NCBI RefSeq assembly: GCF_044342065.1
Contig: NZ_JBIIQN010000010.1
Span: forward strand, 3,764 to 67,763
Length of the DNA stretch: 64,000 nucleotides
Direction of reading: 5' to 3'
From: Aquirufa sp.
Lineage (GTDB): Bacteria > Bacteroidota > Bacteroidia > Cytophagales > Spirosomataceae
Below the pieces are notes generated by a model. The model had not been told where the DNA came from, did not search any database, and saw only the letters and a list, made by a program, of their open reading frames with translations. Shown piece by piece: positions 10,485 through 33,035 of this stretch (positions are counted from its first letter, which is position 1; every line of letters begins with the position of its first letter). The position numbers and the translations under genes are program-made.

Positions 10485-10704
10485 GTCGTTTTTTGTTTTG
10501 GTTGAAAACTTGACACAAAGTTGGTGCATGAATCACTTGCCGACCGAAAATTACAAGCTTGTAGGAGGGGAAAATTAGGTTAATAATTATCTATAATAAC
10601 TTGTTTGTTAATAAGTTATGATTTAGGAATTTTGTTATAGAATGTAACTTCTTGTGAATTAAGATTTTTTTACTCAATTTGAAATAAGAACTTTCAACGT
10701 TAGT

Positions 10705-12894: not shown

Positions 12895-12896
12895 AA

Positions 12897-13660: not shown

Positions 13661-14719
13661 TTAATCTCTTTTGATGCCTATCAATTCGTAATCAAAAGAT
13701 GCATTAGAACCTTTTAATAATACGGTGGAGCCAGGATTACTAAGGATGACATTCACACAGCTTTCGCAACCGGTCGCCTTAGGGCCGAAATAAAGTCCAA
13801 TTTTACTGATGTTGCTATTGTTTGCAACAAAATCGCATTTGAAGGTAAGTTTCTTCAAATCTAGGTTCAAGTTGACAGGCGTCAAATCACTCAAGATCAT
13901 CAATTCACTCGATGCCTGCTTAATTTTTTGACTTAAGTCGGAAATGGATGTTCCTTTTACTGTAAACCCTTTGATGACTTTATTTACCTTGCTCGTTGAA
14001 GCGGCGTTAGAAGGGCTCTTACTCCCCCCAGTTATATTGTCCTCCGGAATATATTCGTCGGTTTCCTCTGGCTCAGGTTCAACGGTTTTTGTTACGATTT
14101 TTTGTTTTTGTGTCGTAGCTTTTTGCGTTGGCTTAGGAGCCTGCACTTCTTCTTTTTCTGTTTCTATTTCTTCTTCTTCTTCTTCAGCAACTTCTGCGGC
14201 TGGTGCCGGGGTTACCGATTTCTTTTTGGATTTCTTGGTATACATTTTTCCCCCAGTCGTTTCAGCAGGTGCGTCCTCTACTTCAGCACCGGGCTTGATC
14301 GCATCTGCTGCTGGTTTGCTACTTTCTGCTGGTCTACTATTTTCAACTGGTTTGCGTGGCGCGGCACTTCCTGAACTAAATGCATCCAATTTTGTAGAGA
14401 AGTCTCCCTCAATTTGCAAATCGGCAAAACTTATTTCAAACATGTATTTTCCTGGAGTCAGGCTACGCAAGCTTTTATTGATGTTGTTCGCAGGAATATT
14501 GATCACCTTCGCATCTTTTTTCTGTACCAAGGCAACATCAACATTCCACATGGAATTAGCTGGCCCTTCTAGATCAAAACTGATTTCAATGGCACCCTTG
14601 TCCAAATTGTATGCGGTGGTGACATTGGAAGTTTGAGCCATCGTTTGAAAACTTAAACCCAACATGATTATGATTAAGGCCGCGATCGGCTCAAGTGTTT
14701 TTAGTATACTATTTTTCAT
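13661..14719 (-). CDS. Secreted protein: Ig-like domain, low-complexity linker, C-terminal CESC domain shared with the receptor kinase
   Basis: Signal peptide ending TMAQ; beta-rich N-domain; P/A/E/K/T linker; C-terminal 101 aa homologous to the kinase C-terminus. Start placed at 14719. Confidence 0.8.
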   Translation of the reverse strand: MKNSILKTLEPIAALIIIMLGLSFQTMAQTSNVTTAYNLDKGAIEISFDLEGPANSMWNVDVALVQKKDAKVINIPANNINKSLRSLTPGKYMFEISFADLQIEGDFSTKLDAFSSGSAAPRKPVENSRPAESSKPAADAIKPGAEVEDAPAETTGGKMYTKKSKKKSVTPAPAAEVAEEEEEEIETEKEEVQAPKPTQKATTQKQKIVTKTVEPEPEETDEYIPEDNITGGSKSPSNAASTSKVNKVIKGFTVKGTSISDLSQKIKQASSELMILSDLTPVNLNLDLKKLTFKCDFVANNSNISKIGLYFGPKATGCESCVNVILSNPGSTVLLKGSNASFDYELIGIKRD

Positions 14720-14759
14720 ATGCGTATTCTTAATTTTATATATCAAACAGAATATTAGT

Positions 14760-14858: not shown

Positions 14859-14919
14859 TTTTTCAGTCTTTTTGAACGCTATTTTTCTTAATATTGACCT
14901 TGTATCAATAATCTACACG

Positions 14920-16788: not shown

Positions 16789-16799
16789 TTCGTAAACAC

Positions 16800-17276
16800 A
16801 TGAAAATAGTTAACACCCTTGCCCTGTTGCTGTTGGCTTCTTCGCTAACTTTTGCTCAAAATTACCGTGATTTTAACTACGAGGTTCAGTTTTTACGAAC
16901 GGGGCTTCAGGGAACGGAGTTGTTCAAGGTTTTTGCCTATGGACGCAATGAGAAACAGTGTTTTGAAAATGCCAAAATGGATGCGGTAAAAGCGCTTCTT
17001 TTTAAGGGCGTACCTGGCTCAGGTTTGCAGAAACCGATGATTACTGAATTGAGTGAAATGAACCAACACAAGGATTATTTTAACTCCTTTTTCAAGGACA
17101 ATGGGCCATATTTAAACTATGTTTCTATCAGCAATGACGGCAGTATCAATGAAAACGATCGATTTAAGGTTGGGAATAAATTGAAAATTGGGGTGATTGT
17201 GTCGGTCAACAAAGCTAATCTGAGAACGGAATTGGAAAACGCTGGAATTATTAAAAAACTAAACGCAGGATTTTAG
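16800..17276 (+). CDS. Conserved secreted protein (possibly LPP20-like)
   Basis: Signal peptide; FKVFAYG.NEKQ..ENAKMDAVKALLFKGVPG...LRTELENAGIIK. Confidence 0.65.
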   Translation: MKIVNTLALLLLASSLTFAQNYRDFNYEVQFLRTGLQGTELFKVFAYGRNEKQCFENAKMDAVKALLFKGVPGSGLQKPMITELSEMNQHKDYFNSFFKDNGPYLNYVSISNDGSINENDRFKVGNKLKIGVIVSVNKANLRTELENAGIIKKLNAGF

Positions 17277-17279
17277 CAT

Positions 17280-18224
17280 ATGAAAAAACTTATACTACTA
17301 TTTGTCCTATTAGGCTTTTATTTTGTCTCTTTTGGTCAAGCTAAAAAGCCTACCATCATGATTGTCCCAAGCGACAATTGGTGTTTTCAAAATGGATTTT
17401 TACTAGAAAATAATAACCAAGGTGTTCGTGTTCGCGTGCCTGATTACAAAAGGGCGCTCATCGAAAACGCTGAGCTATTAACCGTAATCAGTACCATTAA
17501 CGGCTTGATGGCAGAACGCGGATTTCCATTGGAGAACTTAGAGTCAGTTATCAAAGGGCTTGAGGATGAGGCTTTGGAAAATCAAACACTTACTTCAAAA
17601 TCAGGTGCTGCCATTTCTGAGTCTGTTTCTGATAAATTAAAAGCCAAAGCCAAAGCGGATATTATCATTCAATTGGGTTGGACGATTTCTAAATCGGGTT
17701 TCAACAAGTCGGTAACCTTTAATTTACAAGGTTTAGATGCTTATACGAACAAGCAAATTGCGACCGGTGTAGGGACTGGAGAGCCATCTTCAAGTGCCGA
17801 TGTAAATGTCTTATTGCGTGAAGCTGTCCTTGCGCACATTGATAATTTTAATGCAACCTTGATGACACACTTCAATGACTTATTTGAAAATGGGCGTGAA
17901 GTGGTGTTACGAGTAAAGAAATTTGATAGCTGGGAGGATGACTTGGAAACGGAATTCAATGACAAGGAATTGCTTGAGTACATAGAGGAGTGGATGCAAA
18001 AAAACACAGTGAAAGGACGTTTTAATATTTCGGATTCATCTGCTGACATGATGGTGATGAAGCAAGTCCGCATCCCGATGTTTGATGCCAATGGAAATGC
18101 GCTTGATGCCTATGCCTTTGCACGTGGCCTATCAAGGTATTTAAAAAATGCACCATTTGGCATTGTGAATAAGTTGGAACGCAATGGCCTTGGTGGAACC
18201 ACAATCATCTTAGGAAGTAAATAA
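17280..18224 (+). CDS. DUF6175-like family protein
   Basis: KKPTIMIVPSDNWC...AKADIIIQLGW...TFNLQGLDAYTNKQIA..GTG; signal peptide. Confidence 0.75.
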   Translation: MKKLILLFVLLGFYFVSFGQAKKPTIMIVPSDNWCFQNGFLLENNNQGVRVRVPDYKRALIENAELLTVISTINGLMAERGFPLENLESVIKGLEDEALENQTLTSKSGAAISESVSDKLKAKAKADIIIQLGWTISKSGFNKSVTFNLQGLDAYTNKQIATGVGTGEPSSSADVNVLLREAVLAHIDNFNATLMTHFNDLFENGREVVLRVKKFDSWEDDLETEFNDKELLEYIEEWMQKNTVKGRFNISDSSADMMVMKQVRIPMFDANGNALDAYAFARGLSRYLKNAPFGIVNKLERNGLGGTTIILGSK

Positions 18225-18226
18225 AT

Positions 18227-19327
18227 ATGAAAAAATTACTTTTCATTTTTTTAGGACTTTGCATTGCCCAGGTTGCAATGAGTCAGAATAGTTTGGGTAA
18301 AACGGATGATTTAGGTCGGATTACCTTATCTGTTTACATGCCGGAACAGGTGGAAGGTTTGCCGGAAATCTCCAAAGATTTTTTGGCTTCTAAACTAAGT
18401 CAAATTGTTTCTGAGTCGGGCATTGGTTCTTCCAGCGAAGGCAATCGATTTATCATTACGCCTAAGATTTCAATTACCAATAAAAACATCACGACAGGGG
18501 CTCCTTCATATACCTTGATTGATATGGATTTAACCTTGAATATCGGTGATGGGGAATCCGGAACAAAGTTCGATTCCTACACGGTGAGTTTAAAGGGCAT
18601 GGGCTTAAATGACATAAAAGCCTACCAGGCCGCGTTTAAGTTGATAAACGCGAAAGATGCTAAATTCAAGCAATTTCTTGTGAATGGGAAGAGTCGTATT
18701 ATCCAATATTATAATGATCAATGCGACTATCTGCAAGAGCGCGCAACTGCACTTAAAGGCTTAAATCAACATGATGATGCGATCTTGTTGTTATCAGCCG
18801 TTCCAGAAGTTTGCAAGGAATGTTACCAAAAGAGTTTGGCATCGATGACCAAAATTTACGAAGATAAGTTGGAGTTGAATTGTGAAACGAATTTGGCGCA
18901 GGCCAAATCATATTTAGTATCTGGACGATTTGAAGAGGCGGTTGAATTAGTGCAATTTATCACCCCTCGCCAAAAGTGCTATCCTCAGGTAAAAAGTCTA
19001 TTAACTGATATTCAAGATCGTCAGTGTGCTGTTTTATTGGGCAAAGCAAAAGCCAGTTGGGCCGTTCGCAATGTAAACGAAACCCAAAATTATTTGAAGG
19101 ACATCTCAGCTGATTCCAAGTGTTCTGGCGAGGCTATTGCTTTGATTAAAGAAATAGGTGACTGGTACCAACTTAATGAAAAGCGTGCTTGGACATTGGA
19201 GTTGGCTCGTCAGAAAGACGAGTCTCGCGTGCGTTTGGCTGAAATCAATGCCATCCGTCAGGTTGCGATAGCCCAGGCTAAGAATCAGCCGAAGGTTTAT
19301 GTGAAATATAATGTTTATGGGTGGTAG
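18227..19327 (+). CDS. Conserved secreted protein with Cys-containing TPR-like helical C-half
   Basis: Signal peptide; IIQYYNDQC, LSAVPEVCKECY and repeated C...L..AK helical units. Confidence 0.7.
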   Translation: MKKLLFIFLGLCIAQVAMSQNSLGKTDDLGRITLSVYMPEQVEGLPEISKDFLASKLSQIVSESGIGSSSEGNRFIITPKISITNKNITTGAPSYTLIDMDLTLNIGDGESGTKFDSYTVSLKGMGLNDIKAYQAAFKLINAKDAKFKQFLVNGKSRIIQYYNDQCDYLQERATALKGLNQHDDAILLLSAVPEVCKECYQKSLASMTKIYEDKLELNCETNLAQAKSYLVSGRFEEAVELVQFITPRQKCYPQVKSLLTDIQDRQCAVLLGKAKASWAVRNVNETQNYLKDISADSKCSGEAIALIKEIGDWYQLNEKRAWTLELARQKDESRVRLAEINAIRQVAIAQAKNQPKVYVKYNVYGW

Positions 19328-19331
19328 GTAA

Positions 19332-21143
19332 ATGGCGTCTAAGCACATATATACGTTTTTTTGCTTAGTCTGCTTAGTAGTGAGTAGTTTAGAATTGCGC
19401 GCACAAGTTCCCCTGGATTCGATCCCGGTTACCGGCGATTGGGAATCAGCGGGTTTTATTCAAGATAGCCCAGATATGCGTGTTGAAATCGAATATCGCC
19501 TACAAAAAAACTCTTGCGATGTGGCTGGTTTTGGGAATACCAATCACCAGTTTCGATTTAAGATTGAATCGCTAAAAAAAATCTTAGGTTTTGATCGGTA
19601 TTTGACCTTTAAGATTATGTTTGAGGATTGTTCAGGGGTATTGATTTGTAAAACGGTCAACTTGAATGTGGGCGTGAAGCAGAAAAATGATCGATGGGAT
19701 GGGATTCAGCCTCTTTTGGACCCCAACTCAGATAATTCATTCACAGGGCGCAGATTAATCAAAGCATTTTATGACGTAAATCTTCGTTGGGAGAAGGATC
19801 CGACCAAAGATTCAGAGTGCTTACTCGTGAATCCTGCCACCTTAGAAGTGCCTAGTGGAGGGCGGCCAACCGGCGGTGTCACAACACCAGGAACGCCAAG
19901 GCCTCCTATGATTTATGAGATGGCCAGTTCCATTGGAATAAAAGCAAAGAAACTAAATTGTCCGGGAGCAGAAGTAGCGTTTTATCCTGTCGGAGGGAAA
20001 AAGGATGATTTGATTAAATATCATTGGTCCAAGAACACCTGTGAAGGCGAGCAAATTTGGGCTGGAGATACCTTGGTGGTAAGTCCTACCGAAACGACTG
20101 CATATTATTTGAAGATGGTGGGCCCCAAGGCACCAACTAAGTGCATTAGTATCAATTATGTGGTAAACCCCTTGCCGGTAAATAACCTTAATTACAATAA
20201 AAATGTATTGCCTAATCAAGGGGGTATTATTATCAATATCGAGCGATCGGAAAAAATCAGCAGTATTCCAGTTTCTTGGTATTGGGATTCCATAGACCCG
20301 GCACATCGCTTCGCTTCAAATGAATTTTTATTGATTGATAAGGAATTTAAGCCAGGTAAAAAGTACTATTATCGATTTGAGAATGCATGTGGTGCAAGTA
20401 ATGCGAAGCTCGTGACATTTGCGGATGTAAATTGGTCATCTGAGCCATTGCCTGATAGTAATCCAAATGCATCATCTGAAACTAGCGCTGTTGTAGGATC
20501 GAATCAGACAGAGCAAGAGGCAGCGCCCGAGGTTGCTTCTGAGCAAAAATTACCGATATTCAAGCCTGCCGTTACGCCTACATCAGAAACGCCAGCGTCA
20601 AATACAAGCTTCTATGTAGGAGGAGGTATCCTTAGTGGGGGAAATTCAGCCATTCAACCGTTCTATGTCATGGCAGGTATAGGAAAAGCTGATGCGTATA
20701 AGGTATACCTTCGTTACAAAAAGGCTAGTTTAGGTACTTTAGGTACGGTTTCATCAAATTTGGAGACGAATAATTCAAAAATCACAAACTTCCCTGTAAA
20801 TACGAATACCTATTATATTATTTCAGATAAGGTGGCTTCTCAGCGTGTTTCCTATACATTAGGTTATATGAAGGAATTCCGAGGATTTAATGTATATGTT
20901 GGTGGAGGAATGGGCAATAACGATGTTTATTGGAATGCGCAGACCTTCAGCTATGCAAATCCGGGTTTACGTATTTCTGACTCTTGGGTTAAGAATGTAG
21001 TACAGTCGGCAAATGGCCTTGAGGCTGAGGTAGGAGGAACAGTTAAGTTTAAGAATGTTAATTTACAGGGGGGAATTAATTTGATTAAAGGGGCGAGTAG
21101 TTTGTTTATTTCCGCTGACTTTGGTGTAGGATTTACGTTTTAA
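19332..21143 (+). CDS. Outer-membrane beta-barrel protein with N-terminal Ig-like passenger domains
   Basis: Signal peptide; Ig-like repeat (C.G..V.F...KYHW...VSPTETTAYY); P/S/T linker; amphipathic strands ending ADFGVGFTF. Confidence 0.65.
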   Translation: MASKHIYTFFCLVCLVVSSLELRAQVPLDSIPVTGDWESAGFIQDSPDMRVEIEYRLQKNSCDVAGFGNTNHQFRFKIESLKKILGFDRYLTFKIMFEDCSGVLICKTVNLNVGVKQKNDRWDGIQPLLDPNSDNSFTGRRLIKAFYDVNLRWEKDPTKDSECLLVNPATLEVPSGGRPTGGVTTPGTPRPPMIYEMASSIGIKAKKLNCPGAEVAFYPVGGKKDDLIKYHWSKNTCEGEQIWAGDTLVVSPTETTAYYLKMVGPKAPTKCISINYVVNPLPVNNLNYNKNVLPNQGGIIINIERSEKISSIPVSWYWDSIDPAHRFASNEFLLIDKEFKPGKKYYYRFENACGASNAKLVTFADVNWSSEPLPDSNPNASSETSAVVGSNQTEQEAAPEVASEQKLPIFKPAVTPTSETPASNTSFYVGGGILSGGNSAIQPFYVMAGIGKADAYKVYLRYKKASLGTLGTVSSNLETNNSKITNFPVNTNTYYIISDKVASQRVSYTLGYMKEFRGFNVYVGGGMGNNDVYWNAQTFSYANPGLRISDSWVKNVVQSANGLEAEVGGTVKFKNVNLQGGINLIKGASSLFISADFGVGFTF

Positions 21144-21145
21144 TT

Positions 21146-23419
21146 ATGAGACACATTGTATTTTTTATCGGAATCGTTTTCGCCATTTGTTCTTGTACCA
21201 AATTGGAAGACCCCATATTGGGCTTAACGAATCGAGTAGAAATATCAACCAGTACACCAGTTACGGCCATTGGCCCTGATACGGCTTTTGCGGGGGGAAT
21301 AATCAAAACCGATGGCGGGGAAAGCATCATCGAGCGAGGGGTTGTTTGGAGTACAAGTGCTAATCCTACGATTTCGGGTAAGGACCGACGTAAAGCAGGG
21401 GCTGGATTGGGTAACTTTTTAGTTCAAATAGATACCTTAATTCCATTTAGAGATTATTTTGTCAGGGCCTATGCGACAAACTATTATGGTACGGTATATG
21501 GCCAACAAGTTACCTTTAAGACCATCAAAGGAAGACCTCGACTAGGAAACAGCTTTTCGATGTCGAGGGATGCCTACAATATTAAGTTGGCAGGCACCTT
21601 AGCGAATGACGGAGGAGAACCTGTAGAATCTCGAGGATTTTGTATATCCGTAAATCCCTTACCCACTATTCTACTGACTGGTAATAATAGTCAAAATCGT
21701 GTTGTGCCCGTTACTACGAGTGCGTCTTATTTTGAAACGACCGTAGGGGGGCTCTTGCCCAAAACGAATTATTTTATTCGATCCTATGCCACCAACAGAA
21801 ACGGTACGTCTTACGGGAAGCAATTTCAAGTGACGACTGAGATGGGTCCACCAAAGATCGACCCAATCGTTATTTCAAATAAAGAGGCAACCAGTGTTAG
21901 GTTAAGGATGAAAATCACGTCGGCTGAAGGTGGAAGGATTGTAAGGTATGGTTTTGCAATATCGTCAACGAATAAAAGTCCTCTCTTTAGCCAAGAAGGT
22001 TCGGAGGTAAGGTTGTATGAGAATAGTTTAACTAGGAACATGCTTTCAATTCTGTCTAGAGACCCATCGGGTAGTGGGACTTTTGAGGTTGACGTTAAGG
22101 ATCTTAAAGCTGGAACTACGTATTATGTAACCGGCTATGCAATAAATGAAAGTGAGGATAAGATCAACAAAAATACGCATACAGATGTGCAAGTGTTTAC
22201 GACGAAGGGACCACCGAGCGTTGTGAACATTAATTCGAGTGGCTTGAGTTATTACTCATTTATTGCCAATGCTCGGATATTGGGTGATGGGGAAAGCCCG
22301 ATTAGAGAAATGGGATTTTATGTCAGTACCAATCCAGATCCTAGAATTAACCCGCGCGTGTTTCCTGTGGGAGTAAAATTGGGTGATTTCTCCAGTTTAA
22401 TTACGTCATTAGATGCAGGTAAATTTTACTATTTTACGGCTTTTGCACGAAACGATTTTGGATTAACAATTGCCAGCAATCCTGTAGCTGTTCTCACGCT
22501 GGCAAATACGAAACCTGTGATAAATAGAGCACCAACCCCTGGTGTATTTATAGGAAAGGGTATTCCAGTTTCAGCAATTATTGATTCTGATGGGGGATTA
22601 CCAATATCGGAACGCGGGTTTTACTATAGCACAAATCCTAATTCATTCACCTTTAAGGAAAGCTCCAGTTCAATCCAAGGGTTTCCCCAAGGAGAATATT
22701 CGAATACTATTAGCAATAATATCGTATTTGGGAATGTACAGTATTATGTGTGGGCATTTGCGAGAAATGCTTTTGGGGAGACCATTGGTCAGATAAGAAG
22801 TACTTTCACAACACCCAATAAGACTACTCCAATTGTCAGAAATGATAAAGTGGTTCCAGGGGCACGTTCAGCTACGGTAAACGGTATAATCGATTCAGAT
22901 GGATTTGGAACGATATCTTCCTCCGGATTTCTATGGGCAAATAATGCTTCCATGTCAGGAGCAACGACTATTTCAGGCTCAATAAATCTTCCTAATTTCT
23001 CAGGGACGATATCGGGTTTATCTCCTAATACGAATTATTGGTTTCAAGCCTTCGCAAATAACGAAATAGGGCGTTCGACTTTGCCTGTGGTAACTAGTTT
23101 TAAAACATTGTGCGAGGCTGCTGGAGTATCCTATTCGTCAGTCAGCGCAAGTACAACGTCTTTGCTTATTACGTATAATTTAACAAGCTTAGGAGGAGAT
23201 TCCAATGTTACAAGAGGAGTTTGTTTTAGTTCTACAAATACGAATCCTCAATTAAATGGCGCTGGTGTTTCAAGTTCGGTCGGGACACAATCAACAACGG
23301 GTTTATTCCAGGCTAGTGCCACAGGACTAATATCACGAAGGACTTACTATGCTCAGGCGTATGCCACCAATTGTTTTGGTACGGTATACTATGGTGTAAG
23401 AACTTTCACAACACTTTAA
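21146..23419 (+). CDS. Lipoprotein with seven fibronectin type III-like repeats
   Basis: Lipobox ICSC; seven ~95-aa units with DGG..I.ERG..ST..P...L.P.T.Y.VRAYA.N..G..YG...FTT. Confidence 0.85.
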   Translation: MRHIVFFIGIVFAICSCTKLEDPILGLTNRVEISTSTPVTAIGPDTAFAGGIIKTDGGESIIERGVVWSTSANPTISGKDRRKAGAGLGNFLVQIDTLIPFRDYFVRAYATNYYGTVYGQQVTFKTIKGRPRLGNSFSMSRDAYNIKLAGTLANDGGEPVESRGFCISVNPLPTILLTGNNSQNRVVPVTTSASYFETTVGGLLPKTNYFIRSYATNRNGTSYGKQFQVTTEMGPPKIDPIVISNKEATSVRLRMKITSAEGGRIVRYGFAISSTNKSPLFSQEGSEVRLYENSLTRNMLSILSRDPSGSGTFEVDVKDLKAGTTYYVTGYAINESEDKINKNTHTDVQVFTTKGPPSVVNINSSGLSYYSFIANARILGDGESPIREMGFYVSTNPDPRINPRVFPVGVKLGDFSSLITSLDAGKFYYFTAFARNDFGLTIASNPVAVLTLANTKPVINRAPTPGVFIGKGIPVSAIIDSDGGLPISERGFYYSTNPNSFTFKESSSSIQGFPQGEYSNTISNNIVFGNVQYYVWAFARNAFGETIGQIRSTFTTPNKTTPIVRNDKVVPGARSATVNGIIDSDGFGTISSSGFLWANNASMSGATTISGSINLPNFSGTISGLSPNTNYWFQAFANNEIGRSTLPVVTSFKTLCEAAGVSYSSVSASTTSLLITYNLTSLGGDSNVTRGVCFSSTNTNPQLNGAGVSSSVGTQSTTGLFQASATGLISRRTYYAQAYATNCFGTVYYGVRTFTTL

Positions 23420-23486: not shown

Positions 23487-24932
23487 TTATTTCTTTGATG
23501 AAGCATAAATGCCTATCACCTGCGCATCAAAATTACCATCACTTTGACTAGCAAAAACCGTTGAACCTGGATTGTTTTGCATCACGGAACTACAACTCTC
23601 ACACCCTAAATCCACTGGGCCAAAATACAAGCCCAACTTAATGATGTTCGAAGGCGATGAGCGCTCTTCAAAACGGCATGAAAACCTACGCGATGCTAGA
23701 TTGAGTTGGACATCCACGGGATATAGGTATGGGTTGTTACTTAATATTCGTTCGGATTCTTTCTTTATTTTTGCACTTAGGGCAGGGAGACTTGATCCGC
23801 GTACTGATATTTCTGATATAGACTTTTTCTCTTTTTTAGGCTTTTTCTCTTTTTCCTTATTTGAAATAACCGGTGCATCAGCTACTATAAGTGAGTCTGT
23901 AGCAGTTTCCACCTTTGGTGTATCTCTAGTAAAATAATACCCTCCACCTGCGACAATCAGTAATGCAGCAACAGCTCCAATGATTACATTTTTATTCTGC
24001 CAAATTGAGGTAGGTAATGCCGCTTCATATTCAGCATCTTGTTCAACATGGGGTAAATTTAAAGCAGGCGACGTAGTAATTTTAGTGGCAGCTGGTTTAA
24101 AATCCGGATTTCCGATTTGGTTAAGGGCTTCTAAAAATTCCTCACAGGTCTGAAAACGATCCTTTTTTTCTTTCTGTGTGGCATGTTGAATAATCGCATT
24201 TAGTTCTTCTGATGCAAATTGATAGATACTTTGAACGCTAGGTAGTGCTTGTTTGGTAATCTCTAAATAGATGTCAAGTTCTGTATTGTATTTTGCATAG
24301 GGATTCATACCTGTCAACATCTGAAAGAGCGTAACCCCTAAGGAGTAGATGTCACTTAATTTATCCAAGGCCTCGCCACGAACTTGTTCAGGGCTCATGT
24401 AATAAACGGTTCCCATTTGGGTGCCATCTTTGGTTAAATCTCGGTTGTTCCCATCCAATATTTTGGCAATACCAAAGTCTAAAATTTTCACCGTTTGGAA
24501 GTCCCGTGAGATGATGATGTTGGATGGCTTCACATCCCGGTGTACGATTTTTTTCTTATGGGCATAGGCAAATCCCTTCAACATGCCACTAAAAATTTTA
24601 ATCGCATTTTCCGTTGGGATGGGACCAGACTCCTTGATGATGTATTCATCCAGCGGGATCCCTTCCACGTATTCCATAATCAAAAAGCAGCCGGCATCAT
24701 TTTCCTCGTAATCATACATTTCGACGATGTTGGGATGCTTTAATCCCGACATCGTTTTAGCCTCATTTAAGAATCTTGATTTGATTTGCTCATTACGCAG
24801 TAAGCGCTTATGCAAAGATTTAATCGCCGCTTTTTTATCGACGTGAATATGTTGCGCAAGGTATACTGATCCCATACCACCTTCTCCTAAGACGGAAATT
24901 ACTTTGTAGTTGGCAATAATGGCATTTATCAT
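23487..24932 (-). CDS. Transmembrane Hanks-type Ser/Thr protein kinase with an extracytoplasmic CESC domain
   Basis: GEGGMGSVY, AAIK, HRDVKPSN, DFG, GTVYYMSPE, DIYSLG; TM VIIGAVAALLIVAGGGYYF; 107-aa C-terminal domain. Confidence 0.95.
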   Translation of the reverse strand: MINAIIANYKVISVLGEGGMGSVYLAQHIHVDKKAAIKSLHKRLLRNEQIKSRFLNEAKTMSGLKHPNIVEMYDYEENDAGCFLIMEYVEGIPLDEYIIKESGPIPTENAIKIFSGMLKGFAYAHKKKIVHRDVKPSNIIISRDFQTVKILDFGIAKILDGNNRDLTKDGTQMGTVYYMSPEQVRGEALDKLSDIYSLGVTLFQMLTGMNPYAKYNTELDIYLEITKQALPSVQSIYQFASEELNAIIQHATQKEKKDRFQTCEEFLEALNQIGNPDFKPAATKITTSPALNLPHVEQDAEYEAALPTSIWQNKNVIIGAVAALLIVAGGGYYFTRDTPKVETATDSLIVADAPVISNKEKEKKPKKEKKSISEISVRGSSLPALSAKIKKESERILSNNPYLYPVDVQLNLASRRFSCRFEERSSPSNIIKLGLYFGPVDLGCESCSSVMQNNPGSTVFASQSDGNFDAQVIGIYASSKK

Positions 24933-24941
24933 AATATGAAC

Positions 24942-25736
24942 TTATAACAGTGAAATGAGCGCTTTTTTAAATTCCAAACAAGTTGGGTAGCGGTGAATCG
25001 GATTAACTTGAGTAGCCTTTTTAATGCAATTTGCTAAATTAACAGGAAAATTAGCGGGACCGATGCCCTCGAGTTCCCCATCGAGTTTTTTAGCGAAAAC
25101 TTCATCAATGTTAAGCTTGGGATCAAACGGCGCTTTTCCCTTGAGTAGATAAAATAGGGTAACCCCAAGTGAATAGATGTCGGAAAGCTGCGTGACATTT
25201 GCATTATTCACTTGTTCCGGACTCATGTAGTAGGGGCTACCTACAAACATGGATGGATTAATCTGTGTGGTATTTCGGGATATCCCAAAGTCAATTACTT
25301 TGATATTCCCATCAGGTTTAATCATGATGTTCGCTGGCTTCAAATCAAGGTGAAGAACAGGAAATTGCCTCATGTGCGCATAATGAATGGCATCCGCAAT
25401 TTGAATCATGATTTGAATAGCCAATGCTTGCGGTATTCCCTTCGGATAATTTTTCTTTACGTATTCATCTAAGGTATTCCCCTCGATGTACTCCATGACG
25501 AGGTAAGGAGGGTTGAAATTGAATCCCTTTAGGGTAACGATATTTTGATGATTCAGATAGAGGTATTGATTTGCCTCAAATTGAAATTTATCAAGCGCTA
25601 CAGCATTGCTATGAAAAGATTGCCTTAATACTTTAATCGCCACAGGAAACCCTGTGTACGTGTCAACAGCCAGGTATACAATCCCAGAGGCCCCTTCACT
25701 TAACGTTTCAATGGTATCGTACTGTCCTAATCTCAT
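24942..25736 (-). CDS. Soluble Hanks-type Ser/Thr protein kinase (non-RD)
   Basis: SEGASGIVY, VAIK, HLDLKPAN, DFG, GSPYYMSPE; no TM. Confidence 0.92.
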   Translation of the reverse strand: MRLGQYDTIETLSEGASGIVYLAVDTYTGFPVAIKVLRQSFHSNAVALDKFQFEANQYLYLNHQNIVTLKGFNFNPPYLVMEYIEGNTLDEYVKKNYPKGIPQALAIQIMIQIADAIHYAHMRQFPVLHLDLKPANIMIKPDGNIKVIDFGISRNTTQINPSMFVGSPYYMSPEQVNNANVTQLSDIYSLGVTLFYLLKGKAPFDPKLNIDEVFAKKLDGELEGIGPANFPVNLANCIKKATQVNPIHRYPTCLEFKKALISLL

Positions 25737-25809
25737 TGGATTTTATCGAATTATTTTATGAGGCGATTGATTTAAATCTTTAAATGAGTACTTTAAATTA
25801 ACGACTAGT

Positions 25810-27561
25810 CTAGCTAGTTTTGCCATCACCGGTTTTGCCTTCACTAGTTTTAACATCACCTGTTTTGCCATCAACAGTTTTACCATTACTTGTCTTACCA
25901 TTACCTCTCTTACCATTGCCTCTCTTACCATTGCCTGACTTGCTATCACCTGTCTTGCTATCACCTGTCTTACTATCGCCTGTCTTACTATCGCCTGTCT
26001 TACTATCGCCTGTCTTACTATCGCCTGTCTTACTATCGCCTGTCTTACTATCGCCTGTCTTACTATCGCCTGTCTTACTATCGCTTGTCTTACCATCGCT
26101 TGTCTTACCATCGCCTGTCTTACTATCGCCTGTCTTACTATCGCCTGTCTTACTATCGCCTGTCTTGCTATCGCCTGTCTTGCTATCGCCTGTCTTGCTA
26201 TCTCCTGTCTTGCTATCTCCTGTCTTGCTATCTCCTGTCTTGCTATCTCCTGTCTTGCTATCTCCTGTCTTTCTATCTCCTGTCTTTCTATCTCCTGTCT
26301 TTCTATCTCCTGTCTTTCTATCTCCTGTCTTTCCATTGTAAAGAGTTGGCTCAGGATTAGAAAAGAAATAGGTTGGATGAGGAAATTCTATTTTCTTTTT
26401 AATTTTTCCTTTAAAAAAGTCACTTAGTTTATAGATAGTATCTTCTCCTGTTATCTTATAATAAGAAAGAAGGTTTATATCTGTGCTCTTTAACATATCA
26501 ATTTGTTTCTTTGATATTATTTCTAGATAGCCTGACTCATTTTTTGTAAATTTCAAAAGTCTTATTAATGTCTCTTTAGAAACATACTCATCGAGATCAA
26601 TTTTATCGGAGTTGTCTGTCCCTAGTGATACTGGTCCGCTATTTTCTCCGTCTTTGGTTGATGTTTTTAAGCTTGATTCCGGTCTAGGTCCTGTTATTAT
26701 TTCAATTATGGATTCGCGTAAAGCAAAAGTAACTACAAAAATCCCTACAAACACTGCCGCAATCGATAGCATCAAAGTTTGATTTGATTTCGTCTCCTTA
26801 ACTTGTTTATGCGGGCTTTCCAACACATCGATTATTTGAACTGTGATGTTATCATGTCCTCCACCTTGTTTGGCAAGTTTAATTAATTGCAAGGCGCACG
26901 CCATAGGATCAGCAATTGTTTGCAAGGTTTTAGTAAACACTTCATGGCTAATTAATCCCGAAAGCCCATCTGAACAAAGAACGATGCGCTCCCCTTTTAC
27001 GGCCTTGATGTTTTTAGAAATAGTAGGTTCTTCGGTTTCTCGAATGCCCAATGCCTTGGTGATTTCATTTTTTCGAGGATGATGTTCAGATTGACTCTGG
27101 GAAATCAAGCCTTGGTCTACCATGTCTTGTACAACTGAATGGTCTTTGGTAATTTGAGTCAGTTTGTTATCAAGAAAGCGGTAAGCACGGCTATCGCCTA
27201 TGTGTCCTACATGTATTTCATCTTGGTACTGCAGCATGACCACGGCAGTAGTCCCCATGCCTTTACTCGTAGGACTTACTTTGCTTTCAAAATAAATCTG
27301 CTGGTTGGCAAATTTAATGGCATTGGCTAACGCAATGGAAGCATTATCAATGGGCTTTGTTGTCAAATACTCCGAAATAAATCGAACGGCAGCTTCCGAT
27401 GCTTTATCGCCGCTATCATGTCCTCCCATACCATCGCAGACGATGTAGGCGATACAATCAGGATTAATTCGAACCACGAGTTCGCGATCTTCATTGAGTT
27501 GGCGAACAAGGCCAACATCAGTTAATGAGGCATGCTTGAATGTATATTTCGTATTTGACAT
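25810..27561 (-). CDS. PP2C (Stp1/PrpC-type) Ser/Thr phosphatase with a TM helix and a pentapeptide-repeat tail
   Basis: TDVGLVR..NED, VCDGMGGH, GTT, GDSRAY, DHS, LCSDGL, GGHDNITV; TM LSIAAVFVGIFVVTFAL; (KTGDS)n tail. Confidence 0.95.
   Translation of the reverse strand: MSNTKYTFKHASLTDVGLVRQLNEDRELVVRINPDCIAYIVCDGMGGHDSGDKASEAAVRFISEYLTTKPIDNASIALANAIKFANQQIYFESKVSPTSKGMGTTAVVMLQYQDEIHVGHIGDSRAYRFLDNKLTQITKDHSVVQDMVDQGLISQSQSEHHPRKNEITKALGIRETEEPTISKNIKAVKGERIVLCSDGLSGLISHEVFTKTLQTIADPMACALQLIKLAKQGGGHDNITVQIIDVLESPHKQVKETKSNQTLMLSIAAVFVGIFVVTFALRESIIEIITGPRPESSLKTSTKDGENSGPVSLGTDNSDKIDLDEYVSKETLIRLLKFTKNESGYLEIISKKQIDMLKSTDINLLSYYKITGEDTIYKLSDFFKGKIKKKIEFPHPTYFFSNPEPTLYNGKTGDRKTGDRKTGDRKTGDRKTGDSKTGDSKTGDSKTGDSKTGDSKTGDSKTGDSKTGDSKTGDSKTGDSKTGDGKTSDGKTSDSKTGDSKTGDSKTGDSKTGDSKTGDSKTGDSKTGDSKTGDSKTGDSKSGNGKRGNGKRGNGKTSNGKTVDGKTGDVKTSEGKTGDGKTS
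25813..26331 (-). repeat. 15-bp coding tandem repeat, ~34.6 copies (AAG ACA GGM GAT AGH; KTGD[R/S/G])
   Basis: 519 bp = 173 codons; variants fall in blocks, degenerating toward the 3' end. Confidence 0.97.
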
Positions 27562-27566
27562 CGTCT

Positions 27567-29099
27567 TTAAATGTTGAATTTAAGTTTTACATCCCCTAAT
27601 TGAATGAGATCACCGTTAACTATGGGAGCAAAATCTACTTTTTGTCCATTGATCAGTACGCCATTTGAGCTTCCTAAATCTTGAATGATGAATTTACCAT
27701 CCTGCATGAATTTAATCGCTGCATGTTTTCGGGATACGGATGCAATGTTGATCTGGAAGTTGTTTGAATCTTTGTCGCGACCTATGGTGAAAGTTGATTT
27801 ATCCACATAAAACTCTCCCCGGTTGCCATTGTGATTATACGTAATGCGCGGGAATGCATTTTTCTTTTTCATTAAAGCATCTAGACGTTCTTGTTCCTGC
27901 TGTTCCAATAATTCCGCTTTTTGTCTAGCGATCTTGTCTTCGGTTTCACGCTGCTTGTCCAGGATGCTTCTTATTTCTTGCTCGTGCTGAAAATCTTTCG
28001 CTTGGGCCTCTTGTAAGCGCTGCGCTTTTTTCTTTTTGTAATTCTTAACAAGTACCAAAGATCCCCAAATTGCTAAAGCGATTGCGATCAACAAGCAAAT
28101 AAACAAAATTACATTTGCCTTTATCCAATCAATCGGATTGAATGGATATCTTTTAACCACACTATGCGCTTTCACGTTATCCAGGTAAATGCCTATTTCA
28201 TTTTCAGCCCCGGTTTTGGTCAAGTTCGAAAAGTAGGAAATATTGTAGTATTTACCTGTTGAATTTTTAATCATATCATCGAAAAAGCGACCAATTTGAT
28301 CAGATGTTTCAATAATATTATTCCGCTTACTAACAAAGTATTGACCATTGGTAACCTTACAAATTTCATTTTCGGTTACGGGTTGGTAACGCGCAGCACC
28401 GATGTTGTAACCGATGGCGTAAATCGGAATATCGGTATTTTGGCTTAAATCAGTAATCTCTTTAATCGTTTTTTGACTGGCTATGTTGGGCAAATCATCA
28501 GACAATAACAAGATGTTTTTGCTTGATGCATCTTTTGATTTAGATAAAAATTGCAAAGCTTCATCTAAGGCAAAATAGATGTCAGATCCTTTTTGAAGAT
28601 TAGGTAAGAATGACTTCGCTTTTAACCGGTTAACCTGAGCCATGACATCTTGCTCATTATTACTGGGATTCGGATCCGAAAGGAACATGTATTGCCCCCC
28701 TCTAAACCAATCAAAGCTTGCCACGTAAACTTTGTCATTCGAATTGATTTTGCCAGAAATACCTAGGGATAGTACGGCCTTGAAGAAGGCTCTTTGGTTG
28801 ACTCCTTTGGGTAAATAATGGTTTTCAATCAAAATCAAGACCGTCTTGTTGGGGGCTTGTTTGGCTTTTGCGGGGGCTCCAATTTCAAAAATGGATTTGA
28901 TTTGAACTTTCTTATTATTTTCTCTTATGGAAAATGAGCTCGTATCAATCGGGTATATTGACCTTGTCCATACCGTTGTGGTGACAGTTGGGAATTTTTT
29001 GAAATCAAAAGACTGGGTATTGATATCAAATTTTTGAGCATAAGAAAATAAGAGCACCCCTTGAAAAAGTAATGCTAAAATCCATTTTGACTTGTTCAT
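27567..29099 (-). CDS. Signal peptide-vWA-TM-coiled coil-FHA protein
   Basis: vWA-like core (VLILIENH, GSDIYFALDEA, ILLLSD, IPIYAIG); one TM; Q/E/K-rich coil; FHA TIGR...VSRKHA..DLGSSNGVLING. Confidence 0.85.
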   Translation of the reverse strand: MNKSKWILALLFQGVLLFSYAQKFDINTQSFDFKKFPTVTTTVWTRSIYPIDTSSFSIRENNKKVQIKSIFEIGAPAKAKQAPNKTVLILIENHYLPKGVNQRAFFKAVLSLGISGKINSNDKVYVASFDWFRGGQYMFLSDPNPSNNEQDVMAQVNRLKAKSFLPNLQKGSDIYFALDEALQFLSKSKDASSKNILLLSDDLPNIASQKTIKEITDLSQNTDIPIYAIGYNIGAARYQPVTENEICKVTNGQYFVSKRNNIIETSDQIGRFFDDMIKNSTGKYYNISYFSNLTKTGAENEIGIYLDNVKAHSVVKRYPFNPIDWIKANVILFICLLIAIALAIWGSLVLVKNYKKKKAQRLQEAQAKDFQHEQEIRSILDKQRETEDKIARQKAELLEQQEQERLDALMKKKNAFPRITYNHNGNRGEFYVDKSTFTIGRDKDSNNFQINIASVSRKHAAIKFMQDGKFIIQDLGSSNGVLINGQKVDFAPIVNGDLIQLGDVKLKFNI

Positions 29100-29105
29100 A
29101 GTATG

Positions 29106-29765
29106 TTAAATTGCTGTTCTAAACTTCAAAATAGTTGAGCCAATTTTGATTTTGTCTCCATCTTTTAATTCATATGGAATACCTATTTCGATATCAACAT
29201 CATTGATAAAGGTTCCATTAGCTGTCATTTCATCTTTTAAATAAAAGCGATCTTTTCTGCAAAGCAGAGATACATGCTTACTCGAGATGCTATGATCTTC
29301 TGTGATAGAAATGGTGTTTTCAGGATCACGGCCGATGGTATTTGTGCCTTCGTAAATTCTAAAGTCAACCCCCATCGGATCTATGGTATAAGAAATTAGC
29401 CATGCCGTAATTTTTCGAGATGGGCGTGCGTTTCCTTCACCGAATGTTCCATCTGCTGAACCTTCTTCGGTTTGGATAAAGGTACGATTTAGGTCTTTAG
29501 GTTTGCCAAACGCTTCTCCTGCTGGTGCCGCTTGCGAACCAAAAAGTTGTGTTGCATCTAAATTTCCACCTGCAGAATTCCCCCCTGTGATTTGGGTTTT
29601 ATTTAAATCAGTTCCCCCGCCCCCGTTATTGGGTACGGTAATTGAAGTTTTGTCCAGGTTATTCGACTGCGTAATGTTTGTCGCATTTCCACTTGGACAA
29701 TACGGACATGCTGTCTCCGTATTTGGATATAAGTGTCCATTGGGACATTTTGTATAGTTGCTCAT
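29106..29765 (-). CDS. Zn-ribbon-FHA domain protein
   Basis: CPNGH...CPYC N-terminus; FHA TIGRD...ISSKH...DEMTANGTFIND. Confidence 0.9.
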   Translation of the reverse strand: MSNYTKCPNGHLYPNTETACPYCPSGNATNITQSNNLDKTSITVPNNGGGGTDLNKTQITGGNSAGGNLDATQLFGSQAAPAGEAFGKPKDLNRTFIQTEEGSADGTFGEGNARPSRKITAWLISYTIDPMGVDFRIYEGTNTIGRDPENTISITEDHSISSKHVSLLCRKDRFYLKDEMTANGTFINDVDIEIGIPYELKDGDKIKIGSTILKFRTAI

Positions 29766-29795
29766 AATGTTGTTATGATTGATTTTTAGAAATAA

Positions 29796-30305
29796 TTAAC
29801 TCATTGCAGCGATAAGCGCACCAGCGAAAATAAGGAAAAACAGGCCATAAAGAACACAAATAATTAAAGCCCACCATAACCATGCTTTAGCTAGATTCTT
29901 GGTAACAATGGCCCTAGGATCATCTTTATTTACCCAAATGATCGCCATAATCAGGTTAACCAGTGGTATACCTAAAAGTAGCATATATATCATGAAATCT
30001 CCTACGCTTGGCACTTCCACATAAGAATTCTGGCCGTCAGCGTTTGTATTTGATGAAACACTGCTGAAATCCACATAGTTCATCCAAGGCACGAGTGCAT
30101 TTCCTGCTTTTACGATGTCAAATTGATTTAACACCTGGGTACCATACACTTTTGATCCGTTGACAAAAGTTCCATTGGTTGATCCTAAGTCGGTAATGGT
30201 GATCTGACCATGCTGATGGTCAATTTTAGCGTGCATTTTAGAAACACTTGAATCATTTATAACAATGTCGCATGTATTTAATCTGCCAATTGAGAATGCT
30301 TGCAT
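29796..30305 (-). CDS. FHA domain protein with a C-terminal two-TM membrane domain
   Basis: SIGR...VSKMHA...DLGSTNGTFVNG; then LLLGIPLVNLIMAIIW...NLAKAWLWW. Confidence 0.9.
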   Translation of the reverse strand: MQAFSIGRLNTCDIVINDSSVSKMHAKIDHQHGQITITDLGSTNGTFVNGSKVYGTQVLNQFDIVKAGNALVPWMNYVDFSSVSSNTNADGQNSYVEVPSVGDFMIYMLLLGIPLVNLIMAIIWVNKDDPRAIVTKNLAKAWLWWALIICVLYGLFFLIFAGALIAAMS

Positions 30306-30986: not shown

Positions 30987-33035
30987 ATGAAAATGAAAAA
31001 AATTGTTTTGTTATGCTTGTTGGCCTGCGGCTTCTCAGCTATGTCCCAGAGTTATCAATTGCAAATGGGAATCAATACATTCTTAGAAAAAAAATATGAT
31101 GAAGCGATTCCCTTTTTTAATAAGGAATTGCAGTTGCATCCAAAGGAAGGACGTGCCTATTATTATTTGGCAAAAATTCATCTTACTAAAGATGAAAATG
31201 TGGAAGGCTTGAAAAAAATTGATTTAGCCATTGCCAATTTAGCTGATGCAGATACCGTATTAGCAAAAGCATGGATCACCAAAGGGGATATTTTTCAGCA
31301 AATTAACGATACCGCTAGATTCGAATCGGCTTATTTAAAGGCCTTGAAGTTATTTCCAGCACTTCCTGAAGTGTACTTGGAACGCGCATCCAGTTATATG
31401 AGTTGGCGGATGTATGAAAAGGCAAAGGTGGATTTATTTAAGGTCCTTGAGTTAGATCAAACCCATCTTGAAGCCCGGAGTTTATTGTGTAACCTATATG
31501 TGGAAGAAAAGAAATACGATGCGATTATCAAGGAGGCCAATAAAATGATTGCGCTAGATCCCAATTACGTGGATTCCTATGATTTTCGCGCAATGGCGTA
31601 TTTTTATTTAAAAAAGTATGATTTAGCGATTCAGGATGCCTATACGGCTTTGACTCTGAACGATCGGGTTGCTCGGTTGAAGTTCAATTATTTGGTATAT
31701 GCCAAGAAAAATTTTGGTTTAGCCCTTGCCAAAATTTCAAGCATAATCAATGAATATCCTCAGAACGATAATTGGTACTTGTTGCGTTCCCAAATCTATG
31801 CTGAAAAGCGTGATTTCGATAAGGCTTTACAGGATTTTGAGCGAATCTTAACCCTTGTATCAGTAAATATATACCCGCATTTTTTTGCTAAGCGCGCTGA
31901 GGTATATTCGAAGATGGGTTTATATAAGAAGGCAATTGGAGATTATACGGGAGCCATTGAGAGCGATTCTGCTGATTGGGAAAGCATTGCAGCCCGGGGG
32001 AATGCCTATCGATTGCTGGGCAAGTATGACCTTGCAATAGCTGATTTTGATCGGGCTATTGAATTGTATCCTGAGTCGGCCGACTACTATTTGTTTCGAG
32101 GCTGGGCAAAAGAGGAATTGCCAGGGGAATCAGCTGCCAGCTTAGCTGATTACACAACTGCGATCGAGCTAGATCGCGAATTATCCATTGCCTATTTACA
32201 TCGAGGGCGGCTTTACCAAAAAAGTTACCAAGACACCATTCGGGCGAATGCTGATTTTCGCCGGGTGATTGAATTAGATACCATGACGGGTTCGGAGCGT
32301 AATTCCCGCCAATTTGCGCTTGCTGGATTAGGAAAAGTTCATGAGGCTAAGGCTTGGATGTCCAAGATTCTTTCCGAGTATCCCGAAGATGGGAATTACT
32401 ATGATGCGGCTTGTTTGTATGCTCTTTTGAACTCACCAAAAGAATCAGTGGCTTATTTGGATTCCTCATTCCAAAAGGGCTATCGTGATTTTATTCATTT
32501 GGCTACGGATAATGATTTGGATTTAGTTCGGAATTTACCTGAGTTTAAAAATGTCGTTTCGCAATGGAAGGCAAAGTTTGGTGCTAAAATGGAGCCATCT
32601 GCCGTAATTCGTCCGCTTGAGTCAACGATTAGCGGCACCTATGTCATTCCTTTTAAAGTGGATAGGGGAGGGACTTTTGAAGTTGCTAGTAAGGTGAATG
32701 GCCTACCTTTGAAAATGCTGTTTGATACGGGAGCGGGTGATATTACAATCTCACAAACCGAAGTTGATTTTATGATTAAGAATGGATATTTGAATGAGAA
32801 GGATTTTACCGGAAAGGCTCGCTATACGTTGGCAAATGGTGAGGCTCTAATCGCGAAGACTGTTTTATTAAAAAAAGTGGAACTAGGCGGGCTCGTGCTG
32901 GAAAATGTAGCAGCGGCTGTGGTGGAAAATAGGGAAGCGGGTATGTTGTTCGGACAAAGCGCCATGGGGCGGTATGCCACGATAACCATCGATAATAAAA
33001 AGAAGCAATTGATTATTACAGGCAATAAAAAATAA
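30987..33035 (+). CDS. Secreted TPR protein with a C-terminal retropepsin-like aspartic protease domain
   Basis: Signal peptide; many TPRs; YYDAACLYAL...GY.D......D.DL terminal helical unit; MLFDTGA and MLFGQSAM retropepsin motifs. Confidence 0.88.
   Translation: MKMKKIVLLCLLACGFSAMSQSYQLQMGINTFLEKKYDEAIPFFNKELQLHPKEGRAYYYLAKIHLTKDENVEGLKKIDLAIANLADADTVLAKAWITKGDIFQQINDTARFESAYLKALKLFPALPEVYLERASSYMSWRMYEKAKVDLFKVLELDQTHLEARSLLCNLYVEEKKYDAIIKEANKMIALDPNYVDSYDFRAMAYFYLKKYDLAIQDAYTALTLNDRVARLKFNYLVYAKKNFGLALAKISSIINEYPQNDNWYLLRSQIYAEKRDFDKALQDFERILTLVSVNIYPHFFAKRAEVYSKMGLYKKAIGDYTGAIESDSADWESIAARGNAYRLLGKYDLAIADFDRAIELYPESADYYLFRGWAKEELPGESAASLADYTTAIELDRELSIAYLHRGRLYQKSYQDTIRANADFRRVIELDTMTGSERNSRQFALAGLGKVHEAKAWMSKILSEYPEDGNYYDAACLYALLNSPKESVAYLDSSFQKGYRDFIHLATDNDLDLVRNLPEFKNVVSQWKAKFGAKMEPSAVIRPLESTISGTYVIPFKVDRGGTFEVASKVNGLPLKMLFDTGAGDITISQTEVDFMIKNGYLNEKDFTGKARYTLANGEALIAKTVLLKKVELGGLVLENVAAAVVENREAGMLFGQSAMGRYATITIDNKKKQLIITGNKK

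Follow-up and report, generated by a model that had tools for sequence, protein, structure and literature searches.

What does a receptor kinase read when its extracytoplasmic end matches no described sensor, and what is the role of a second copy of that end on a separate exported protein? The question is raised by the window analyzed here, 64,000 nucleotides (nt) of Aquirufa sp. (contig NZ_JBIIQN010000010.1, positions 3,764 to 67,763), which encodes a receptor Hanks-type Ser/Thr kinase of 481 amino acids (aa) and, on the same strand, an exported protein (hereafter the secreted protein). A reading of the letters alone (the sequence-only reading) had proposed that the C-termini of the two share a domain of ~100 aa with three cysteines. 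BLASTP bore this out: the single significant segment between the full-length proteins comprises both C-termini (51/111 identical (46%), 62% positives, E = 4e-23), a homology far beyond chance, and all three Cys align (C419, C444 and C447 of the kinase with C304, C327 and C330 of the secreted protein in 361-aa numbering). The bounds first proposed, 23490-23810 and 13664-13966, were right to within a few codons, and the refined ones (Table 1) delimit a length of ~105 aa common to both copies. The source genome (2.6 Mb, 97% complete) has exactly two copies of this CxxC domain, both in the window. Although we hold the reading tentatively, the domain may well be a sensing or docking head for a surface system encoded by an adjoining gene cassette, with the kinase copy as the relay input and the soluble copy as a periplasmic partner.

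A rare exported domain with a near-invariant CxxC motif

The absence of a recognized sensor family, already remarked upon in the sequence-only reading, extended to every library searched. Pfam and NCBIfam scans of both window proteins left the shared region without a match, a Pfam scan of the 41 aligned family members taken singly returned isolated chance matches only, PADLOC and PHROGs held no match to the domain, and PDB sequences searched with the family profile gave chance matches only (E about 1). Literature searches on Hanks-kinase sensors of Bacteroidetes found nothing relevant. The suggested sensor domain is thus undescribed as far as these libraries reach; it is extracytoplasmic and sits on the kinase where a PASTA sensor would. 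In an exhaustive profile search over 1.84 billion representative proteins (cut-off E <= 1e-3), 45 proteins (clusters) were recovered, 34 of them at E <= 1e-10, so the family is real but very rare. Its nearest named relative is a kinase of Aquirufa sp. HETE-83D (Cytophagales). Within the genus of the window, the domain was found in 3 of 49 species genomes; it was absent both from 32 further genomes of the order and from a sample of 400 others drawn from the whole phylum. When the DNA of ~185,000 species genomes was scanned with a strict signature, one more locus came up, in a river Bacteroidota metagenome-assembled genome (L018). The secreted gene was detected in lake or freshwater metagenomes, in no fewer than 20 runs dated 2016-2025.

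Every full-length member inspected has a signal peptide, a lipobox or a transmembrane (TM) segment ahead of the domain, which is therefore extracytoplasmic. Five architectures were distinguished: (a) kinase, TM segment and domain (the window, Aquirufa relatives and the distant P0067 and P0051); (b) signal peptide, Ig-like domain, linker and CxxC domain; (c) TRL-family lipoproteins (PF13146) with the CxxC domain; (d) short bitopic proteins with the domain, in two motif subclasses; and (e) a DUF805 membrane protein with the CxxC domain. One bitopic subclass (P0038, P0041, P0043, P0044, P0048, P0050, P0056, P0059, P0061, P0063 and P0070) has a cytoplasmic N-terminal motif, about LSSSEI(R/K)NNFKN.KKERYIGLK, right before the TM segment; this tail could be a docking or phospho-acceptor element in place of a fused kinase. 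The other has SWRTDP..VDIV just past the TM segment (genome G012 at L009:7828-8403, L013:17158-17721, P0033 and P0034). In G012 and L013 the gene for this second type is preceded by one of ~378 aa, of which the G012 copy has neither a Pfam match nor a window homologue.

In 44 of the 45 matches, gene-call fragments aside, at most a few residues separate the end of the domain from the C-terminus; the exception is P0071, a marginal match to a repeat protein. Such placement, together with the accessory and variable nature of the genomic island described below, would suit a passive structural or anchoring module, such as a C-terminal attachment or sorting domain, whose fusion to the kinase is incidental. 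We regard this as very improbable. Many members are merely an anchor plus the domain, so in those proteins the domain must be the functional head, not a tag. Pfam and NCBIfam gave no match to type 9 secretion system (T9SS) C-terminal domains (type A, type B/CHU_C); T9SS sorting domains are beta-sandwiches on cargo that is fully exported, whereas the CxxC domain has a predicted alpha/beta fold and is carried by bitopic TM proteins and by a kinase of the inner membrane, for which secretion is impossible. Moreover, the fusion to a kinase has been conserved across deep divergence.

Conservation was counted in the 41-sequence alignment, in kinase numbering. C444 and N454 are invariant (41/41), with C447 and S457 (40/41 each) and I473 (39/41) nearly so; L385, S393 and G456 are conserved in 38/41, P405, G438 and S446 in 37/41 and E445 in 35/41. 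The family signature reads K(L/I)(G/S)L..GP...GCESC.N.L.(K)NPGS...(I/V)IAI. Conservation of the shared cysteines consequently holds for the CxxC pair and fails for the third: C419 is present in 34/41 members and replaced by Phe in the remaining 7/41, which suggests that this residue is buried and not required as a disulfide partner. An AlphaFold2 model built from the alignment (mean pLDDT 93, pTM 0.85) predicts an alpha/beta fold with six strands and two helices within one ~105-aa unit, in the order b1(4-9)-a1(13-28)-b2(34-42)-b3(47-54)-b4(61-70)-a2(76-84)-b5(89-96)-b6(99-107). The first Cys of the CxxC motif lies at model position 75 and the second at 78, so the motif straddles the N-terminus of a2. 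CxxC at a helix N-terminus is the geometry of reactive (thioredoxin-type) or metal-binding motifs, and on this model the motif of the domain may be either.

A thiol-disulfide or metal switch would follow from that geometry: the CxxC would be redox-active or metal-binding, perhaps bridging two domains, with the kinase reading oxidative or thiol stress or the domain acting as an oxidoreductase for Cys-rich cassette proteins. The near-invariant pair, with Glu (35/41) and Ser (37/41) between its cysteines, argues for this reading, as do the position of the first Cys just before the helix and of the second in its first turn, and the 8 and 10 Cys held by the island proteins p366 and p603. We nevertheless judge it unlikely. 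A mononuclear Zn site needs more ligands than a single CxxC supplies, the third Cys has the look of a buried residue and not of a resolving one, and a conserved Cys pair in an exported protein can be a plain structural disulfide. Thioredoxin-fold oxidoreductases such as ResA (active site CEPC) share the exported setting and the CxxC at a helix N-terminus, but differ from the domain in the order of secondary-structure elements. The thioredoxin fold (b-a-b-a-b-b-a core) had no Pfam or NCBIfam match, and none of the PDB matches that Foldseek listed, the best of them at E 0.14, was to a protein of this fold. The HMA domain (b-a-b-b-a-b) is known for the metal-binding motif MxCxxC; no PF00403 match was found, and ACT/ferredoxin-like PDB matches reached TM-scores of only 0.25-0.29. 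In HMA the motif follows b1, in the b1-a1 loop, whereas the CxxC here is at the b4-a2 junction.

Across the PDB, Foldseek returned nothing at E <= 0.001 (best TM-score 0.38, archease). The order of strands and helices can be read as two b-a-b-b units; an internal duplication was not supported by hhalign, which gave no profile similarity between the halves (probability 0.2%). Two b-a-b-b units are also the order of SHS2 domains (archease TM1083, GyrI-like), and the match to archease 1j5u (TM-score 0.38, E 0.29) is not significant. In the BFVD viral library, borderline matches (E 0.04-0.1, TM-score 0.57-0.61) were to uncharacterized T1-like coliphage proteins; all SHS2 and coliphage matches are non-significant (E >= 0.04). 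Among these coliphage proteins, of the fiber/decoration type, Rogue1_0021 is encoded beside the capsid gene and consists of an alpha/beta domain at the N-terminus with collagen repeats behind it; neither CxxC nor NPGS is present, and it was set aside as a functional lead.

A surface-gene cassette and a kinase-phosphatase-FHA string

The main point missed by the sequence-only reading is the genomic context: the domain, mostly borne on non-kinase anchors, belongs to a cassette of surface genes. A run of minus-strand genes begins with the secreted gene and continues with those for a 253-aa protein, a 297-aa protein and a NAGPA phosphodiester glycosidase (11093-13658); this trio also comes after domain genes in L013/L014, L012, G012, genome G021 and the P0067 locus. 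Homologues of the Ig_7-like and FN3-repeat proteins encoded on the other side of the secreted gene adjoin domain genes in G012, G021, L012, L015-17, L018 and the P0067 locus. This rare Bacteroidota cassette is composed of an Ig_7 protein whose C-terminus is barrel-like, a ~255-aa membrane protein, a ~297-aa exported protein, NAGPA and usually an FN3 lipoprotein. In the window, the C-terminus of the 603-aa Ig_7-like protein, which holds 10 Cys, looks like an outer-membrane barrel (ending ...GFTF). L012 (30% GC; domain 26% identical) encodes on one strand Ig_7, FN3, ~248-aa, ~293-aa and NAGPA proteins, three more genes and the domain protein; in L015-17 a TM-anchored copy adjoins Ig_7 and FN3 genes, and in L018 two domain copies adjoin an Ig_7-like gene. 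As the cassette adjoins domain genes both in the genus and beyond it, the domain is a conserved component of this surface cassette, even at 26-28% identity. G021 (L011:13323-17625) encodes the 297-aa protein as three paralogues in tandem and also a NAGPA fusion of 737 aa, where the window has one copy of each. The idea that the 297-aa protein is itself a NAGPA paralogue was discarded, with no similarity found and no PDB relative.

The cassette lies in an accessory island at about 10530-30680, flanked by a DUF6717-VWA gene (9453-10529) on one side and a TPR/Asp-protease gene (30987-33035) on the other. At the same site in G012 (L009), the flanking genes are almost adjacent, with two unrelated open reading frames (ORFs) between them and no island, while the metagenomic contig L013 has the cassette, a trypsin/MORN gene and a TM-anchored copy there, without the kinase operon. 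The 297-aa cassette marker was found in 3 of 61 genus genomes, exactly those with the domain, and the VWA-FHA operon marker in exactly two, those with the kinase-fused copy.

The constant presence of NAGPA in the cassette bears on a second alternative, in which all copies of the domain separately recognize one small molecule or glycan (a NAGPA product or substrate, say, or a surface polymer) with no contact between domains, the kinase copy sensing and the others tethering. Fusion of the domain to many unrelated anchors (TRL lipoprotein, DUF805, Ig-like domain and bare TM segment) is consistent with such an independent ligand sensor, as is G021, which works with a single copy, and PASTA kinases provide a precedent for sensing envelope fragments (PMC6213207). 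The structure searches, however, gave no ligand pocket or known binding fold, and ligand sensing alone leaves the regular pair of copies per locus described below unexplained; we consider this alternative somewhat unlikely.

The kinase belongs to a second set of genes. Its kinase domain (Pfam Pkinase, residues 9-264, E = 1.4e-56) has the complete motif set AIK36, HRD131, DFG152 and SPE180, and it closes a same-strand (minus) string of FHA-TM, FHA, VWA-TM-FHA, PP2C-TM, soluble kinase and receptor kinase genes (23487-30305). The part upstream of the receptor kinase (24942-30305) is conserved in G021, and an analogous string occurs at the locus of P0067, a distant kinase fusion (kinase domain 55% identical, sensor 28%). 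The order there, on one strand, is FHA, PP2C, FHA, FHA, kinase, FHA/M48, FHA/ABC, kinase plus domain, kinase, Ig_7, 259-aa, 292-aa, 297-aa, LamG/VWA, NAGPA and NAGPA. Fusion to a kinase, with FHA and PP2C genes alongside, is an old and recurrent way of wiring the domain. Input domains tend to diverge faster than the kinase domains they serve, and among orthologs of the window kinase the sensor (68% identity) does diverge faster than the kinase domain (93%). In the secreted protein, the CxxC domain is the best-conserved part.

Table 1 Features of the window that bear on the CxxC domain and its gene neighborhood (positions in the window).
Feature	Position	Strand	Basis
Receptor Hanks-type Ser/Thr kinase, 481 aa: kinase domain, TM segment, linker, C-terminal CxxC domain (clade II)	23487-24932	-	ORF; Pkinase E = 1.4e-56
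Only TM segment of the kinase, residues 314-335, KNVIIGAVAALLIVAGGGYYFT	23928-23993	-	Hydropathy scan, mean Kyte-Doolittle value 2.08; translation
Lys-rich periplasmic linker of the kinase, residues 336-372	23817-23927	-	Translation; least conserved segment among orthologs, 14-72% identity
CxxC domain, kinase-borne copy, residues 373-476	23505-23816	-	BLASTP E = 4e-23 vs secreted copy; profile E = 2.2e-38; AlphaFold2 pLDDT 93
C-E-S-C motif (C444, C447), N-terminus of helix a2	23592-23603	-	Translation; conservation; helix at model positions 76-84
N-P-G-S turn past helix a2, N454 invariant	23562-23573	-	Translation; conservation
Exported (secreted) protein: signal peptide, Ig-like domain, acidic/Lys linker, CxxC domain (clade I)	13661-14719	-	352 aa from ATG 14719
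N-terminal Ig-like beta-sandwich, ~88 aa	14372-14635	-	AlphaFold2 pLDDT 90, all-beta
Low-complexity E/A/K/P/T-rich linker, ~130 aa	13982-14371	-	Composition; 38-86% identity among close orthologs
CxxC domain, secreted copy	13673-13981	-	BLASTP, profile, translation; 87-96% among orthologs
CESC motif of the secreted copy	13757-13768	-	Translation
NAGPA phosphodiester glycosidase (cassette)	11093-12001	-	ORF, annotation
297-aa exported protein (cassette)	12001-12894	-	ORF
253-aa two-TM protein (cassette)	12897-13658	-	ORF; TM scan
Four exported proteins including DUF6175 (17280-18224)	14872-19327	+	Close relatives only
603-aa Ig_7-like protein and 757-aa FN3-repeat lipoprotein (cassette)	19332-23419	+	ORFs, annotation
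Soluble kinase	24942-25736	-	Pfam
PP2C-TM-repeat	25810-27561	-	Pfam; TM scan
VWA-TM-FHA	27567-29099	-	Pfam; TM scan
FHA	29106-29765	-	Pfam
FHA-TM	29796-30305	-	Pfam; TM scan

The longest ORF of the secreted protein (13661-14746, minus strand) gives 361 aa from a TTG; the ATG start in Table 1 is more likely, and the 352-aa form is the cluster representative. The N-terminus carries a hydrophobic segment (signal peptide call), and Foldseek on the N-terminal domain gave generic Ig/FN3-like matches only (E > 0.03). Near-identical metatranscriptome contigs cover the secreted gene (13871-14595, 13978-14489 and 13934-14402; word depth 16-25), the kinase is represented by one exact 179-nt piece (23745-23923), and smaller pieces fall in the FN3, VWA-FHA and FHA genes. 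Transcription of these genes is on these grounds probable, as the depth of contigs reflects expression poorly and some of them may stem from carried-over DNA. A poly-Glu stretch of the linker (14145-14185) attracts unrelated short metatranscriptome contigs, and the inflated depth there is an artefact.

Between the two domain genes, the plus-strand block at 14872-19327 encodes proteins of 638 aa, 158 aa, 314 aa (DUF6175) and 366 aa (8 Cys), none of them functionally annotated. L013 has this block as well, whereas distant cassettes lack it, and no paper mentioning DUF6175 was found in the literature library searched. The PP2C protein has one TM segment (259-290) followed by ~35 tandem KTGD[S/R/G] pentapeptides (at about 25813-26331), presumably on the periplasmic side, and its G021 orthologue is shorter (442 aa). 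Related islands hold genes not seen in that of the window, namely caspase-like Peptidase_C14 genes (E = 3e-15) and one weak DO-GTPase1-like match (E = 1.7e-4), at L008:16624-17601 (G012), L018:7521-8000 and L012:7675-8634; both kinds are reminiscent of bacterial conflict systems, and a link of the related islands to such systems is conceivable. For the window, a defense-system reading was set aside, the domain and the non-kinase proteins having no meaningful PADLOC match and the kinase domain only generic ones (PD-T4-6, mad6). PADLOC gave a low-complexity match of the PP2C repeat tail to PD-Lambda-5_A (residues 414-501) and none for the secreted protein, the 253-aa and 297-aa proteins, NAGPA or the three FHA proteins.

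Sister clades and a possible partner relationship

In a maximum-likelihood tree of 54 domain sequences, the two window copies fall in sister clades, I (support 96/90) and II (96/82). Clade I comprises Ig-type and some TRL-type proteins, and clade II the Aquirufa kinases, the SWRT-type bitopic proteins and other TRL-type proteins. The copies were tabulated from a profile scan of all fetched loci. In the window, clade I is represented by the secreted protein and clade II by the kinase; in G012, by a 277-aa Ig-type and a 335-aa TRL-type protein (I) and a 191-aa TM-anchored protein (II); in L018, by a 267-aa Ig-type (I) and a 347-aa TRL-type protein (II); and in L013, by a 340-aa Ig-type (I) and a 187-aa TM-anchored protein (II). 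Each of the four loci with at least two copies thus carries at least one copy of each clade. The idea of a free partner copy gains support from this, since the copies fall in sister clades and the multi-copy loci hold one of each; the frequent pair favors a partner relationship, and this support, drawn from sequence comparison, is real but limited.

The sequence-only reading had further asked whether kinase-fused and secreted copies occur together. As an obligatory rule this is refuted by G021, which has the kinase copy only, and by L013, where a secreted copy is accompanied by a plain TM-anchored one with no kinase operon; the kinase and secreted pair specifically is not obligatory. Several observations weigh against the proposal of a sensing or docking head with a periplasmic partner. 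The pairing regularity comprises four loci only, and G021 (98% complete), with a clade-II kinase copy and the cassette, has no second copy anywhere. Most members are short bitopic proteins without a kinase, and the stand-alone TM copies P0029 and P0073 nest within the kinase clade, so the domain works without a covalently attached kinase. Co-occurrence at the level of the genus is also partly trivial, because all of these genes lie in one accessory island.

On the sensing or docking proposal, the clade-II copy would be the input domain of a receptor Hanks kinase in a PknB/PpkA-like relay of FHA, PP2C and kinase proteins, and the clade-I copy, on a long flexible linker behind an Ig-like domain, would be its periplasmic partner. 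The two copies would engage each other, directly or via one shared ligand made or displayed by the cassette, and this engagement would set the dimerization and activity of the kinase. The activated kinase would signal to the FHA proteins, with PP2C resetting the relay, such that the state of surface assembly is reported across the periplasm. The CxxC at the helix N-cap would be the likely reactive or contact center; the readings overlap in part here, as the motif of the thiol or metal switch could be the contact point between partners. A bolder version, which we think quite improbable, combines a new fold with a reversible heterodimer, bridged through the CxxC by a disulfide or a metal; one partner would be a clade-II copy anchored in the membrane (on a Hanks kinase in the window) and the other a soluble clade-I copy, whose long linker ties it to the surface assembly. 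If true, it would be an unprecedented principle of trans-periplasmic signaling, with one and the same domain serving both receptor and co-receptor.

Relation to known kinase systems and significance

The order fhaA-fhaB-pstP-...-pknA-pknB is that of the actinobacterial operon, and a PASTA unit has ~70 aa, with one helix and three strands, and is usually repeated. The window system resembles that operon in having PP2C, FHA proteins and a second kinase alongside a receptor kinase encoded by the last gene, and it shares with the PASTA kinases (PknB/PrkC/Stk1) an N-terminal cytoplasmic Hanks kinase, one TM segment and a C-terminal extracytoplasmic sensor (PMC6213207). It differs in carrying a single ~105-aa alpha/beta CxxC domain instead of PASTA repeats, in its Gram-negative Bacteroidota host, in its accessory surface cassette instead of core cell-wall synthesis genes and in its paralogous free copy. 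PASTA (PF03793) had no match at E <= 1 in either window protein or any of the 41 members, and the NCBIfam PknB_PASTA_kin model matches residues 8-285 only, that is, the kinase region.

The PpkA-PppA-Fha1 system with TagQ/TagR likewise combines a PP2C and an FHA protein with a Hanks kinase that has a domain in the periplasm. In the H1 type VI secretion system (H1-T6SS) of P. aeruginosa, TagR, a soluble periplasmic protein held by the lipoprotein TagQ, is thought to engage, dimerize and activate PpkA (PMC13713981). The window system similarly has a soluble exported putative partner, and the CxxC family has lipoprotein-anchored versions. The PpkA ectodomain, however, is a VWA domain, whereas VWA in the window sits on a separate FHA protein, and the window kinase and its putative partner share a homologous domain, which PpkA and TagR do not. 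A role as T6SS regulator was rejected, with no TssC/VipB (PF05943) in the source genome, in a search with E. coli as positive control.

The window therefore holds a new version of a familiar arrangement, in which a receptor Hanks kinase has a sensor outside the cytoplasm and an accessory protein in the periplasm; the domain it uses is undescribed in the libraries searched. The reach of the finding is limited by the rarity of the domain, which is confined to a few freshwater Bacteroidota lineages; the domain nevertheless merits a new domain-family entry, and it could help to annotate the unknowns of the cassette, such as the DUF6175 block and the 253-aa and 297-aa proteins. To our knowledge, understanding extends to few of the extracytoplasmic sensors that bacterial Hanks kinases carry, and in Bacteroidota to almost none. 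Because the domain is confidently predicted to fold and has a defined set of genetic partners, the domain, together with its surface cassette, FHA and PP2C genes and soluble paralogue, provides a concrete, testable case of envelope-to-cytoplasm phospho-signaling.

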